A stretch of DNA of 64,000 bases. Source: Escherichia coli (GTDB taxonomy: Bacteria > Pseudomonadota > Gammaproteobacteria > Enterobacterales > Enterobacteriaceae). The translations under genes and the position numbers were made by a program. The notes under the pieces were generated by a model. It ran no database searches. It worked only from the letters and a program-made list of their open reading frames with translations, and had not been told where the DNA came from. The stretch is taken from the NCBI RefSeq assembly GCF_024502345.1, contig NZ_JALDNN010000001.1; one strand, 5' to 3'. The stretch's first letter is position 1. Each line of letters begins with the position of its first letter. This document shows positions 50,849 through 58,766 of this stretch, piece by piece.

Positions 50849-50985
50849 CGTGTAATGGCTGCATGAAATAAACAATAAAATATAAATAACATTATCAGCC
50901 TGCTGACGGCTTGAAGAGAGTCACAGTATCTTGTGCAACATTATTGGAAAGAGTGAGGGGCGAGGTAGCGAAGTGGAAAAATGTT

Positions 50986-51091
50986 AAAAAAAAGCCCATC
51001 GTGGGAGATGGGCAAAGACTACACACAGCAATTCGTTGTTTCACTCAGGGGATTTCCATGCTTATAAATCAATATGTTGATTTATAACCGT
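50986..51091 (-). ncRNA. rprA: Small regulatory RNA RprA (Hfq-dependent activator of rpoS translation)
   Basis: Minus strand reads ACGGTTATAAATCAACATATTGATTTATAAGCATGGAAATCCCCTGAGTGAAACAACGAATTGCTGTGTGTAGTCTTTGCCCATCTCCCACGATGGGC followed by a T-run; between ydiL and ydiK. Confidence 0.9.
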
Positions 51092-52602: not shown

Positions 52603-55600
52603 ATGATTCCACAGATTTCCCAGGCACCCGGCGTCGTTCAACTGGTGCTTAATTTTTTGCAAGAGCTGGAGCAACAAGGTTTTACCGGCGATACGGCGAC
52701 AAGTTATGCCGATCGTCTGACAATGTCGACCGACAACAGTATTTACCAACTTCTCCCCGATGCGGTGGTATTTCCGCGTTCAACCGCAGATGTGGCGCTG
52801 ATCGCCCGTCTTGCCGCGCAGGAACGCTATTCATCGCTGATCTTTACCCCCCGCGGCGGCGGCACCGGCACTAACGGTCAGGCGCTCAACCAGGGGATTA
52901 TTGTTGATATGTCCCGCCATATGAACCGCATCATCGAAATTAACCCTGAAGAGGGCTGGGTGCGCGTTGAGGCCGGGGTGATAAAAGATCAACTCAATCA
53001 GTACCTGAAACCGTTCGGCTACTTTTTTGCGCCGGAACTTTCGACCAGCAACCGGGCAACGCTCGGTGGGATGATCAATACCGATGCATCCGGTCAGGGA
53101 TCGCTGGTCTATGGCAAAACGTCAGATCACGTACTTGGCGTACGCGCGGTGTTGTTGGGGGGCGATATTCTCGATACGCAACCTTTACCCGTCGAATTGG
53201 CGGAAACGCTGGGTAAATCCAATACCACAATCGGGCGAATTTATAACACGGTTTATCAACGTTGCCGTCAGCAACGCCAGTTAATTATCGACAACTTCCC
53301 CAAACTTAACCGCTTTCTTACCGGTTACGATCTGCGTCATGTCTTTAACGATGAGATGACCGAGTTCGACCTGACGCGCATTCTGACGGGTTCAGAAGGG
53401 ACGCTGGCCTTTATTACCGAAGCGCGGCTGGATATTACGCGCTTGCCTAAAGTGCGCCGTCTGGTGAACGTCAAATATGACTCTTTTGACTCTGCGCTGC
53501 GTAACGCGCCGTTTATGGTTGAGGCGCGGGCGCTTTCGGTAGAGACGGTGGACTCAAAAGTGCTGAATCTGGCGCGGGAAGATATTGTCTGGCATTCCGT
53601 CAGCGAGTTGATTACCGATGTGCCTGACCAAGAGATGCTCGGGCTGAACATTGTGGAATTTGCTGGTGATGATGAGGCGCTGATTGATGAGCGGGTAAAT
53701 GCACTCTGTGCGCGGTTGGATGAGCTGATCGCCAGTCATCAAGCAGGTGTCATCGGCTGGCAGGTGTGCCGTGAGCTGGCGGGGGTTGAACGTATCTATG
53801 CAATGCGCAAAAAAGCCGTTGGTCTGCTTGGCAATGCCAAAGGTGCCGCTAAGCCAATTCCGTTTGCTGAGGATACCTGCGTACCGCCGGAACACCTGGC
53901 GGATTATATTGCTGAATTTCGCGCGCTGCTCGACAGCCACGGCTTAAGCTACGGTATGTTCGGTCACGTCGACGCAGGTGTCTTGCACGTCCGTCCAGCG
54001 CTGGATATGTGCGATCCTCAACAAGAGATTTTGATGAAGCAAATCTCTGATGACGTGGTGGCGCTGACTGCGAAATACGGTGGTTTGTTGTGGGGCGAGC
54101 ACGGCAAAGGTTTTCGCGCTGAATACAGCCCGGCGTTTTTCGGTGAGGAACTTTTTGCAGAACTGCGCAAAGTGAAAGCGGCATTTGACCCGCATAACCG
54201 ACTCAACCCAGGGAAGATTTGCCCGCCAGAAGGTCTCGATGCGCCGATGATGAAAGTGGACGCGGTGAAGCGCGGTACATTCGATCGGCAGATCCCCATT
54301 GCGGTACGCCAGCAGTGGCGCGGTGCGATGGAGTGTAACGGCAACGGTTTATGCTTCAACTTTGATGCCCGTAGTCCGATGTGTCCGTCGATGAAGATCA
54401 CCCAGAACCGGATTCATTCACCGAAAGGGCGCGCAACGCTGGTGCGTGAATGGCTGCGTTTGTTGGCGGATCGCGGCGTTGATCCACTCAAACTGGAACA
54501 AGAACTGCCTGAATCCGGCGTCAGTTTGCGGACGTTAATTGCCCGCACGCGCAATAGCTGGCATGCGAATAAAGGCGAATATGACTTCTCACACGAAGTC
54601 AAAGAGGCGATGTCGGGCTGTCTGGCCTGTAAAGCGTGTTCGACCCAGTGCCCCATCAAAATTGATGTGCCGGAGTTTCGCTCTCGTTTTCTGCAGCTCT
54701 ATCACACCCGTTATTTACGCCCGCTGCGCGACCACCTCGTCGCTACGGTCGAGAGCTACGCGCCGCTGATGGCACGCGCGCCGAAAACCTTTAACTTCTT
54801 CATTAACCAGCCGCTGGTGCGCAAACTCTCGGAAAAACATATCGGCATGGTTGATTTGCCGCTGCTGTCGGTCCCCTCGCTACAACAACAAATGGTGGGG
54901 CATCGCTCGGCAAACATGACGCTGGAACAGCTTGAATCTCTCAATGCAGAGCAGAAAGCGCGCACAGTGTTGGTGGTGCAGGACCCCTTTACCAGCTATT
55001 ACGATGCGCAAGTGGTGGCGGATTTTGTCCGTCTGGTCGAAAAATTAGGTTTCCAGCCTGTGTTACTGCCATTTTCGCCAAATGGCAAAGCCCAGCATAT
55101 TAAAGGTTTTCTTAATCGTTTTGCGAAGACGGCGAAAAAGACGGCGGATTTCCTCAACCGTATGGCGAAGCTGGGTATGCCAATGGTGGGCGTCGATCCG
55201 GCGCTGGTACTTTGTTATCGCGATGAATATAAACTGGCGCTGGGCGAGGAGCGTGGCGAGTTTAACGTCTTACTGGCGAATGAATGGCTGGCAAGCGCAC
55301 TTGAGTCACAGCCAGTGGCTACAGTCAGCGGTGAATCATGGTATTTCTTTGGTCACTGTACCGAAGTTACCGCCTTGCCGGGTGCGCCAGCACAATGGGC
55401 CGCGATATTTGCCCGTTTTGGCGCGAAACTGGAAAATGTCAGCGTGGGTTGCTGCGGCATGGCAGGGACTTACGGACATGAAGCGAAAAACCATGAAAAT
55501 TCGCTCGGGATCTATGAGTTATCCTGGCATCAGGCTATGCAGCGACTGCCGCGTAACCGCTGTCTGGCGACCGGATATTCCTGCCGTAGCCAGGTAAAAC

Positions 55601-55659
55601 GGGTTGAAGGCACGGGGGTACGCCATCCTGTGCAGGCTTTACTGGAGATTATTAAATGA
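52603..55659 (+). CDS. ydiJ: Large FAD-linked oxidase with Fe-S/CCG domains (D-2-hydroxyglutarate dehydrogenase-like)
   Basis: 1018-aa ORF; N-terminal FAD-binding PCMH-type domain, Cys-rich C-terminal half. Confidence 0.93.
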   Translation: MIPQISQAPGVVQLVLNFLQELEQQGFTGDTATSYADRLTMSTDNSIYQLLPDAVVFPRSTADVALIARLAAQERYSSLIFTPRGGGTGTNGQALNQGIIVDMSRHMNRIIEINPEEGWVRVEAGVIKDQLNQYLKPFGYFFAPELSTSNRATLGGMINTDASGQGSLVYGKTSDHVLGVRAVLLGGDILDTQPLPVELAETLGKSNTTIGRIYNTVYQRCRQQRQLIIDNFPKLNRFLTGYDLRHVFNDEMTEFDLTRILTGSEGTLAFITEARLDITRLPKVRRLVNVKYDSFDSALRNAPFMVEARALSVETVDSKVLNLAREDIVWHSVSELITDVPDQEMLGLNIVEFAGDDEALIDERVNALCARLDELIASHQAGVIGWQVCRELAGVERIYAMRKKAVGLLGNAKGAAKPIPFAEDTCVPPEHLADYIAEFRALLDSHGLSYGMFGHVDAGVLHVRPALDMCDPQQEILMKQISDDVVALTAKYGGLLWGEHGKGFRAEYSPAFFGEELFAELRKVKAAFDPHNRLNPGKICPPEGLDAPMMKVDAVKRGTFDRQIPIAVRQQWRGAMECNGNGLCFNFDARSPMCPSMKITQNRIHSPKGRATLVREWLRLLADRGVDPLKLEQELPESGVSLRTLIARTRNSWHANKGEYDFSHEVKEAMSGCLACKACSTQCPIKIDVPEFRSRFLQLYHTRYLRPLRDHLVATVESYAPLMARAPKTFNFFINQPLVRKLSEKHIGMVDLPLLSVPSLQQQMVGHRSANMTLEQLESLNAEQKARTVLVVQDPFTSYYDAQVVADFVRLVEKLGFQPVLLPFSPNGKAQHIKGFLNRFAKTAKKTADFLNRMAKLGMPMVGVDPALVLCYRDEYKLALGEERGEFNVLLANEWLASALESQPVATVSGESWYFFGHCTEVTALPGAPAQWAAIFARFGAKLENVSVGCCGMAGTYGHEAKNHENSLGIYELSWHQAMQRLPRNRCLATGYSCRSQVKRVEGTGVRHPVQALLEIIK

Positions 55660-56066
55660 TATGGAAACGGAAAATCACCCTGGAAGCACTGAATGCTATG
55701 GGTGAAGGAAACATGGTGGGGTTCCTGGATATTCGCTTTGAACATATTGGTGATGACACCCTTGAAGCGACAATGCCAGTAGACTCGCGGACAAAGCAGC
55801 CTTTCGGGTTGCTGCATGGAGGAGCATCCGTGGTACTGGCCGAAAGTATCGGTTCCGTTGCCGGTTATTTATGTACCGAAGGTGAGCAAAAAGTGGTTGG
55901 TCTGGAAATCAATGCTAACCACGTCCGCTCGGCACGAGAAGGGCGGGTGCGCGGCGTATGCAAACCGTTGCATCTCGGTTCGCGTCACCAGGTCTGGCAG
56001 ATTGAAATCTTCGATGAGAAAGGGCGTTTGTGCTGTTCGTCACGATTGACGACCGCCATTTTGTGA
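55656..56066 (+). CDS. menI: 1,4-dihydroxy-2-naphthoyl-CoA thioesterase (hotdog fold)
   Basis: 136-aa ORF; 4-nt overlap with ydiJ stop. Confidence 0.93.
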   Translation: MIWKRKITLEALNAMGEGNMVGFLDIRFEHIGDDTLEATMPVDSRTKQPFGLLHGGASVVLAESIGSVAGYLCTEGEQKVVGLEINANHVRSAREGRVRGVCKPLHLGSRHQVWQIEIFDEKGRLCCSSRLTTAIL

Positions 56067-56165
56067 CGTTGTCACCAGAAAAGTGTGACGCATATTGCTT
56101 TTGGTCATTATCTGCACAGTAAACGGTGGTATACTGTGCAGGTCTTGTCTAAAAGCGAGGATGCT

Positions 56166-56354
56166 ATGTCTACTCAACTTGATCCCACCCAGCTGGCCAT
56201 TGAATTTTTACGCCGTGACCAGAGCAATCTTTCACCTGCCCAATATCTCAAACGTCTGAAACAACTAGAACTTGAATTTGCTGACCTGCTTACTCTCTCT
56301 TCTGCTGAATTAAAAGAAGAAATCTACTTTGCCTGGCGTCTGGGCGTGCATTGA
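56166..56354 (+). CDS. ydiH: Uncharacterized small protein YdiH
   Basis: 62-aa ORF from MSTQLDPTQLAIEFLRRDQ; ORF-track 89-aa extension rejected. Confidence 0.75.
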   Translation: MSTQLDPTQLAIEFLRRDQSNLSPAQYLKRLKQLELEFADLLTLSSAELKEEIYFAWRLGVH

Positions 56355-56529
56355 TCCTGACTTAATGCCGCAAGTTCGCCAAATCGACCTGGATTAACCT
56401 CCGTCCAGGTTCGATGACCTTCTTAATACTGCTTATCTACCGCCTGATATTGTTCAAAAATAATACTAATCGCAGTTTGTGTTAAAACGGCGGGTTAGCT
56501 TTATGAGATTATTCTTATCGCCCCTTCAA

Positions 56530-56612
56530 GAGCTAAGCCACTGAGAGTGCCGGAGATAAGCGCCGGATGGGGTAGAAACCCTTAAGCCTGTGTCGCACAG
56601 ACTTAAGGGTTT
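56530..56612 (+). ncRNA. rydB: Candidate small RNA with intrinsic terminator (position fits RydB)
   Basis: Hairpin cccttaag-cctgtgtcgcacaga-cttaaggg followed by ttttcttattt, about 200 nt past ydiH stop in the ydiH-sufA spacer; 5' end and strand not verified. Confidence 0.4.
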
Positions 56613-56703
56613 TCTTATTTCTGAACGCTGCACTTTTTTACCTATCTCTTAAATAGTCATTTTCAATACAACTTTTTCTTTTTCATCACAGCCTTAATGC
56701 TCC

Positions 56704-56725
56704 TTAGATAATAACCATTATCTAA
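56704..56725 (+). promoter_or_regulatory. Fur-box-like site in the sufA promoter region
   Basis: agataataaccattatct resembles the GATAAT-N-ATTATC Fur consensus, about 180 nt upstream of sufA. Confidence 0.55.
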
Positions 56726-56901
56726 CAATGAGATACCTAATTCTTAGCGTGCCTGTTAACCCACACATCAGGGTCTATGCTTATTAAAAGCAGGCAAAAA
56801 GCATGTTTTACGGTAAAGCCCCTGCGTTTGCTGGGTTGAACTGATAATCATTATCACTAACATGCTGTTATACGCTGAAAGCGATGAAGTGAGGTAAATC
56901 G

Positions 56902-57270
56902 ATGGACATGCATTCAGGAACCTTTAACCCACAAGATTTCGCCTGGCAAGGCTTAACGCTGACACCCGCAGCGGCGATACACATCCGTGAGCTGGTGGCA
57001 AAGCAGCCGGGTATGGTCGGCGTGCGCTTAGGCGTGAAGCAAACGGGCTGCGCGGGCTTTGGCTATGTGCTCGACAGTGTTAGCGAGCCGGACAAAGACG
57101 ATCTGCTGTTTGAACACGACGGCGCGAAGCTGTTTGTCCCGCTGCAAGCGATGCCGTTTATTGATGGCACGGAAGTCGATTTCGTTCGTGAAGGACTTAA
57201 TCAGATATTCAAATTTCACAACCCTAAAGCCCAGAATGAATGTGGCTGTGGCGAAAGCTTTGGGGTATAG
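56902..57270 (+). CDS. sufA: Fe-S cluster A-type carrier
   Basis: 122-aa ORF with C-terminal CGCGESF motif. Confidence 0.96.
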
Positions 57271-57278
57271 GCGGTACT

Positions 57279-58766
57279 ATGTCTCGTAATACTGAAGCAA
57301 CTGACGATGTCAAAACCTGGACCGGCGGCCCGCTGAATTATAAAGAAGGATTCTTCACCCAGTTAGCCACCGATGAGCTGGCAAAGGGGATAAACGAAGA
57401 GGTGGTGCGCGCAATTTCGGCGAAGCGTAATGAGCCGGAGTGGATGCTGGAGTTTCGTCTAAACGCCTATCGCGCATGGCTGGAGATGGAAGAACCGCAC
57501 TGGTTGAAAGCGCACTACGACAAGCTGAATTATCAGGATTACAGCTACTACTCAGCACCATCGTGCGGTAATTGTGACGACACTTGCGCGTCTGAACCTG
57601 GCGCGGTGCAGCAAACTGGCGCGAACGCCTTTTTAAGTAAAGAGGTGGAGGCGGCGTTTGAGCAGTTGGGCGTTCCCGTGCGGGAAGGCAAAGAGGTGGC
57701 GGTGGATGCCATTTTCGACTCAGTTTCGGTTGCCACTACTTATCGCGAAAAACTGGCGGAGCAGGGAATTATTTTCTGTTCCTTTGGTGAGGCGATCCAC
57801 GATCACCCGGAACTGGTGCGTAAATATCTCGGCACCGTGGTGCCGGGGAATGACAACTTCTTTGCCGCGCTTAATGCGGCGGTAGCCTCTGACGGTACGT
57901 TTATTTATGTGCCTAAAGGCGTGCGCTGCCCGATGGAACTTTCCACCTATTTTCGCATTAACGCGGAAAAAACCGGGCAGTTTGAGCGCACCATTCTGGT
58001 GGCCGACGAAGACAGCTACGTCAGCTACATTGAAGGCTGTTCCGCTCCGGTGCGTGACAGCTATCAGTTACACGCGGCAGTGGTGGAAGTCATCATCCAT
58101 AAAAACGCCGAGGTGAAATATTCCACGGTACAAAACTGGTTCCCTGGCGATAACAACACCGGCGGTATTCTCAACTTCGTCACCAAGCGTGCTTTGTGCG
58201 AAGGCGAAAACAGCAAAATGTCATGGACGCAATCAGAAACCGGGTCAGCGATTACGTGGAAATATCCCAGCTGCATTTTGCGCGGCGATAACTCCATTGG
58301 TGAGTTTTACTCAGTGGCGCTGACCAGCGGTCATCAGCAAGCGGATACCGGCACCAAGATGATCCACATCGGTAAAAACACCAAATCGACCATTATCTCG
58401 AAAGGGATCTCTGCCGGACATAGTCAGAACAGTTATCGCGGCTTAGTGAAAATCATGCCGACGGCAACCAATGCGCGCAATTTCACTCAGTGCGACTCAA
58501 TGCTGATTGGCGCTAATTGTGGGGCGCATACCTTCCCGTATGTCGAATGTCGCAATAACAGCGCACAACTGGAGCACGAGGCAACGACATCACGTATTGG
58601 TGAAGATCAACTGTTTTACTGCCTGCAACGCGGGATCAGCGAAGAAGACGCCATCTCGATGATTGTTAACGGTTTCTGCAAAGACGTGTTCTCAGAACTG
58701 CCGCTGGAATTTGCCGTTGAAGCACAAAAACTCCTCGCCATCAGTCTTGAACACAGCGTCGGATAA
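57279..58766 (+). CDS. sufB: Fe-S cluster assembly scaffold SufB
   Basis: 495-aa ORF from [24 protein letters not shown]; ORF-track 508-aa extension rejected. Confidence 0.96.

Follow-up and report, generated by a model that had tools for sequence, protein, structure and literature searches.

Hfq-dependent sRNAs use a terminator hairpin and its U-tail. The terminators of M1 RNA of RNase P, tmRNA and tRNA transcripts are removed during maturation. RydB of Escherichia coli (synonyms tpe7 and IS082) has been classed as Hfq-independent; in a Hfq co-immunoprecipitation in Salmonella rydB was weakly enriched (10 vs. 4 reads), and Salmonella RydB has been reported as ppGpp-repressed. AZT treatment represses RydB strongly, and this repression depends on SspA; multicopy RydB is reported to lower rpoS-lacZ expression. 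The literature knows no direct target of RydB.

The rydB locus was analyzed in a window of 64,000 nucleotides, the whole stretch of E. coli DNA considered here. Window positions 54788-57788 are the exact reverse complement of positions 1763500-1766500 of the MG1655 genome (NC_000913.3; 100% identical), and the genes on the + strand are arranged in the order ydiJ, menI, ydiH (56166-56354), rydB, sufA (56902-57270) and sufB. A preliminary description had noticed an orphan terminator in the spacer between ydiH and sufA and had proposed RydB as a candidate, without fixing the strand. The Rfam scan returned a match to RF00118 (rydB) at 56520-56580 on the + strand, which covered model positions 1-61 of 61 with 81.6 bits (E = 9e-18; gathering score 50 bits), and the MG1655 gene b4430 aligned to the same strand with an identical sequence. 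The proposed identity was right, and rydB shares its strand with both ydiH and sufA. The terminator is not an orphan, since rydB sits here on the + strand. The interval is the already catalogued E. coli sRNA gene rydB together with its own terminator hairpin, and what is added to the known picture is the position of the hairpin, beyond the limits of both the annotated gene and the dominant RNA. The limits given at first, 56520-56612, begin exactly at the start of the Rfam match and merge the RydB RNA (56520-56580) with most of the hairpin. The hairpin, which had served as the hallmark of RydB, falls outside both b4430 as annotated and RF00118. The coordinates of the features are collected in the table.

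Features of the rydB locus in window coordinates
Feature	Position	Strand	Remarks
Conserved upstream block GCAgTTTGTGTTAAAA	56472-56487	+	∼-48 to -33 relative to the start of the RNA; conserved in 25 orthologues
Extended -10-like element TGaGATTAT	56504-56512	+	TG and GAnnaT near-invariant; putative promoter activity
rydB as annotated in MG1655 (b4430, 68 nt)	56508-56575	+	NC_000913.3 1764713-1764780 (-), mapped at 100% identity
RydB RNA, 61 nt	56520-56580	+	Limits set by the Rfam model and, at the 3' end, by Term-seq
Three-stem 5' domain	56520-56573	+	P1 56520-56524/56569-56573; P2 56532-56534/56546-56548; P3 56550-56555/56561-56566
Terminator hairpin	56575-56613	+	12 bp, 1x1 internal loop, 5 bp (17 bp total), UCG loop; GAAACCCUUAAG-C-CUGUG-UCG-CACAG-A-CUUAAGGGUUUU
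T-tract TTTTCTTATTTCT	56610-56622	+	Read from the sequence

The 61-nt RydB sequence was present at ≥95% identity in 5421 of the 5426 complete E. coli genomes, with one copy in each. E. coli records annotated by PGAP carry no feature at the rydB site, and the curated MG1655 record alone has the gene; its coordinates there start within the probable -10 element and end 5 nt before the mapped 3' end. RydB is an expressed transcript of ∼60 nt, whose 3' end is given by Term-seq and whose putative 5' end is placed by the Rfam boundary and the promoter geometry. Scanned with a permissive E-value, the other Rfam families gave only chance hairpin matches to miRNA models. A tRNA- or tmRNA-like origin was rejected, as ARAGORN found none in 56300-56800. 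An antisense ORF of 35 aa (56526-56633) was also rejected, because E. coli and the Sodalis-type copies have different antisense frames across the invariant core, and a two-codon AUG-GGG-UAG mini-ORF after an SD-like GGAG was not conserved across subtypes. Elsewhere in the window, the Rfam scan matched the phenylalanine leader peptide (22188-22312, +, 75 bits), the enterobacterial sRNA STnc540 (26152-26310, +, 67 bits, with a strong terminator) and the known gene for the RprA sRNA (50984-51091, minus strand), the last with a full-length match of 118.5 bits that includes the terminator.

The 3' end of RydB was obtained from published Term-seq data. For rydB, Supplementary file 1 of Adams et al., 2021 (PMC7815308) gives position 1764708 (-) as a "primary" 3' end. 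This corresponds to window position 56580, so that the RNA terminates in ...GGGGUAGAAACC. The sequence column of the file consists of 50 nt upstream, the end itself and 10 nt downstream, and read in this way the lpp end lands in its T-tract. Position 56580, with which the Rfam model also ends exactly, is located 7 nt past stem P1 and marks the 5' foot of the hairpin. In the three-condition file the rydB end is present three times, with scores of 2,174,030 and 4,136,120 in two of them; the lpp terminator has scores of 175,710 and 82,465 in the same lists. The Rho-termination table of that study does not contain rydB. The curated list has no end in the T-tract; it retains only the strongest peak within 100 bp, which here is 56580, and a weaker T-tract end could be masked. 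The dominant, very abundant cellular RydB ends at 56580, upstream of the hairpin loop and the T-tract. The preliminary description would have been refuted if no transcript ended at the hairpin; on this point the data are ambiguous, because the list gives the strongest end per 100 bp, and that end is before the loop and T-tract.

The hairpin starts 221 nt past the ydiH stop codon, and 289 nt separate its end from the sufA ATG (56902), with the suf promoter ∼250 nt downstream of it. A strong hairpin with a T-tract, described as lying ∼200 nt past ydiH and upstream of the suf promoter, is indeed present. Its MFE was -21.3 kcal/mol, compared to -6.3 ± 2.2 kcal/mol in 200 dinucleotide shuffles (z = -6.86), none of which was as stable (0/200). 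The stem-loop contains GC pairs and is followed immediately on its 3' side by the U-rich tract UUUUCUUAUUUCU, as in an intrinsic terminator. A simple terminator scanner, which counts uninterrupted stems only, did not call the hairpin because the C56587/A56601 mismatch splits the stem, and this miss was not counted against it. A repeated palindrome of the REP/BIME type was ruled out, since the hairpin is single-copy: one match was found in the window (≤3 mismatches), and the median was one place per E. coli genome.

The same hairpin, recognized by its CTTAAG, was found in 25 orthologues from Escherichia, Citrobacter, Salmonella, Leclercia and Silvania among the matches listed. The lower stem CCCTTAAG/CTTAAGGG was invariant in the 25 orthologues across these five genera, the upper stem showed compensatory changes at 4 pairs, and the T-rich tail was kept in 25/25. 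The C/A mismatch was lineage-specific, some orthologues being fully paired on the + strand. In the minus-strand version of the hairpin the mismatch becomes a G-U pair, giving a perfect 17-bp stem with an MFE of -25.2 kcal/mol (z = -8.1). A second hairpin was observed at ∼56383-56415, 29 nt past the ydiH stop codon (-16.5 kcal/mol, z = -4.7), and it has no T-tract. ydiH may be without a canonical terminator of its own.

The MFE structure of a 103-nt RNA contains both the 5' domain and the hairpin, next to each other, so the two are not mutually exclusive. The 5' domain is thermodynamically ordinary (z = -0.01 for its MFE), and its structure therefore rests on covariation. Over the 25 orthologues, 97.5% of the cells in the proposed structure were paired, compared to 28-59% with slid partners. 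Within this E. coli clade, P1 changed on both sides at 3 of its 5 pairs (for example GCUCC/GGAGY and GUUCC/GGAAC). After family-wide realignment to the covariance model all 5 pairs varied on both sides (67 cells), and 96.9% were paired, compared to 33-50% in slid controls. P2 and P3 were nearly invariant, and covariation neither supports nor contradicts either of them; P3 was fixed by the search pattern, and one copy without the exact pattern still has P3. The invariant parts of RydB include the AGAGCUAA junction and the GAGAUAAGCG loop. Conservation thus concerns junctions and a hairpin, and no single-stranded seed is obvious. Family-wide, conservation stops at P1, and the hairpins further downstream are unrelated in sequence and position. 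An alternative pairing, suggested by the likeness of the RydB 5' end CCCCUUCAAG to the 5' arm of the hairpin ACCCUUAAG, was rejected, as it is absent in clades with other terminators.

The 70 nt upstream of 65 distinct subtype-A copies contained TG at -15/-14 and GAnnaT at -12 to -7, counted from the G that opens P1. This spacing points to the geometry of an extended -10 promoter. The discriminator of E. coli rydB has one extra base compared to most copies. A sigma70 -35 assignment was dropped, as there is no candidate hexamer at the normal spacer, and the extended -10 geometry was used instead. The Cappable-seq supplements contain no entry near rydB. Both ends of rydB are probably misplaced in the MG1655 annotation, whose start (56508) probably lies 12 nt too far upstream. 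The TGTTAAA part of the conserved upstream block was kept in the 65 subtype-A copies, which have unrelated genomic contexts, and judged from the sequence this block is a candidate regulator site or promoter-upstream element. Since the promoter module is kept in unrelated contexts, rydB appears to be an autonomous gene. In Klebsiella, Raoultella, Pantoea and Hafnia, two palindromes accompany the RNA gene, TTAGC-nn-GCTAA at ∼-70 to -55 and TAGCAA-nnn-TTGCTAA at ∼-50 to -33 (upstream of the RNA in L004, L048, L094 and others), and both are degenerate in E. coli (AATCGCAGTTTGTGTTAAAA, window 56468-56487). The second palindrome is the form that the conserved upstream block takes in other genera. 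Together they look like an operator for a dimeric regulator.

When one genome per species was scanned for exact matches to the P3 core TGCCGGAGATAAGCGCCGG, at least 120 loci were obtained, at least 114 of which passed the family filter, an RGAGCTR motif upstream of the core; six were chance matches and one passing locus (L090) is doubtful. The RydB-like RNAs (L002-L121) extend across the Enterobacterales in at least four sequence subtypes. Two to three copies at unrelated positions, some of them of different subtypes, were observed in Pantoea, Raoultella, Rouxiella, Serratia sp., Sodalis and Enterobacter sp. (examples are L042/L043, L038/L039, L022/L023 and L004/L077/L078). RF00118 recognizes most subtypes, while L069 (subtype D) and L105 (the Phytobacter form) score below its gathering score. 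Among the matches listed, synteny of RydB with menI and sufA was confined to the E. coli clade, with unrelated contexts elsewhere. In Citrobacter other genes lie between ydiH and rydB, yet the same hairpin is attached to rydB.

By our own criteria, a terminator-like hairpin was located ≤130 nt downstream in 77 of the 111 copies among the matches listed. These hairpins had unrelated sequences; those of the E. coli clade adjoin P1 directly, and elsewhere most start ∼5-45 nt after P1, a few being further away. The copies without a terminator precede unrelated genes, for a PrpA-like phosphatase, an MscS-type channel, OsmC and a CheV-like protein. The second RydB-like copy of Rouxiella and Serratia sp. 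(L057, L063, L065) lies directly upstream of osmC, and the TCTATACTTA element between this copy and osmC resembles a sigmaS-type -10. Pantoea sp. AS-PWVM4 has, ∼1 kb upstream of an intact copy, what is possibly a decaying duplicate, a degenerate RydB-like copy (L013:6794-6854; 28.6 bits) whose P3 shows one compensatory change from G-C to U-A.

We consider it likely that rydB is an autonomous sRNA gene, with its own extended -10 promoter, a 61-nt structured RNA and an abutting intrinsic terminator that is later removed. RNA polymerase would start at ∼56519/56520 from the rydB extended -10 promoter and transcription would stop at the hairpin and T-tract, which would give a precursor of ∼95-100 nt. 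The same terminator would shield the regulated suf promoter, ∼250 nt downstream, from the very active rydB promoter. The hairpin would then be removed by an endonuclease and/or by 3' exonucleases stalling 7 nt past P1, and the product would be a stable 61-nt RNA without hairpin and U-tail. An overhang of 7 nt past P1 would fit a stalled 3' exonuclease. Position 56580 is within the base of a stable stem and thus no obvious cleavage site, which counts against the processing model.

The 61-nt species might instead be an abundant decay or processing intermediate, and the functional RydB the full-length RNA of ∼95-100 nt with hairpin and U-tail. The interval listed for Salmonella rydB has 105 nt and would include the terminator, RepRanger tags rydB with a Rho-independent terminator, and the sequence of the lower hairpin stem is conserved beyond the needs of termination. 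A full-length functional form is nevertheless unlikely, given the very high counts and the three listings of the dominant 3' end at 56580, the stop of family-wide conservation at P1 with unrelated hairpins downstream, and an Rfam model and an MG1655 annotation that both end before the hairpin. We regard it as quite unlikely that the hairpin has no role in RydB biogenesis and mainly stops read-through from ydiH (and menI-ydiH), insulating the suf promoter, while the RydB 3' end is made otherwise: no terminator-like element upstream of 56580 could make that end directly, the Citrobacter hairpin stays attached to rydB where ydiH is separated from it, and most RydB copies in other genera have a nearby terminator whatever their neighbours. 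Transcripts of ydiH may still reach 56613, as the hairpin after ydiH is without a T-tract, and the region downstream is that of a tightly regulated promoter. The suf promoter is controlled by Fur, OxyR and IscR.

The order of the elements, with invariant junctions and loop, a covarying outer stem and then a terminator, recalls an aptamer, and the 5' domain and hairpin could be read as a cis-acting attenuator or riboswitch for read-through into sufABCDSE. This is very improbable: domain and terminator can form together, the MFE showing no fold in which they compete, sufA begins 289 nt further on, the RNA is not next to suf outside one clade, and the terminator-less copies precede unrelated genes with no conserved class downstream. 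It is just as hard to believe in a minus-strand role of the hairpin, or in a protein-bound DNA palindrome, in place of a + strand terminator. The tail of the minus-strand version (UUUCUACCCC) is U-poor and there is no convergent gene here in E. coli; moreover, the upper stem varies by compensatory substitutions, as is expected of an RNA helix, and the + strand T-tract is always conserved. The greater stability of the minus-strand fold and the invariance of CCCTTAAG-N-CTTAAGGG across five genera would fit a minus-strand or DNA function.

In a more tentative extension of the autonomous-gene model, RydB is possibly a stable, structure-dependent RNA that binds a protein or a small molecule and is not a base-pairing regulator. 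It would belong to an Enterobacterales family with 1-3 copies per genome, each with a portable promoter and operator, and would be matured by terminator removal like housekeeping stable RNAs. Compatible with this are the invariant junctions and P3, the covarying P1 and the great abundance of an RNA that lacks both an Hfq-type 3' end and a known target. The orphan terminator has herewith been assigned to a catalogued sRNA gene, and RydB appears to be among the few E. coli sRNAs whose abundant species lacks the terminator. The absence of the terminator from the abundant RNA speaks against Hfq dependence of the classical kind and suggests a simple processing model. As a very active promoter would lie ∼380 nt upstream of sufA, terminator efficiency may matter for the silence of the stress-regulated suf operon.

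The locus is the same gene as the described RydB of E. coli (b4430, RF00118), without any sequence difference, and the annotation, the Rfam model and the Term-seq end all exclude the hairpin. As in intrinsic terminators such as that of lpp, a stable stem-loop is followed by a U-rich tract and shows compensatory changes. The lpp Term-seq end lies in the U-tract, whereas the dominant rydB end precedes it by 30-40 nt and falls at the foot of the stem, and the rydB hairpin further differs from canonical terminators by one internal mismatch and by a U-tract interrupted by C and A. RydB resembles Hfq-dependent sRNAs such as RprA in being short and independently transcribed, with a terminator encoded at the 3' side, and in its reported multicopy effect on rpoS-lacZ. 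In its mature form it is unlike them, as it is without the terminator hairpin and U-tail and is classed as Hfq-independent, and with its dominant 3' end upstream of the hairpin it does not group with the Hfq-dependent base-pairing sRNAs. RydB is comparable to the M1 RNA, tmRNA and tRNA transcripts, being an abundant structured species without the terminator that is encoded immediately downstream, which in RydB would be lost by trimming, and the reported ppGpp repression in Salmonella is a further likeness; unlike in such stable RNAs, its discriminator is AT-rich and not GC-rich.
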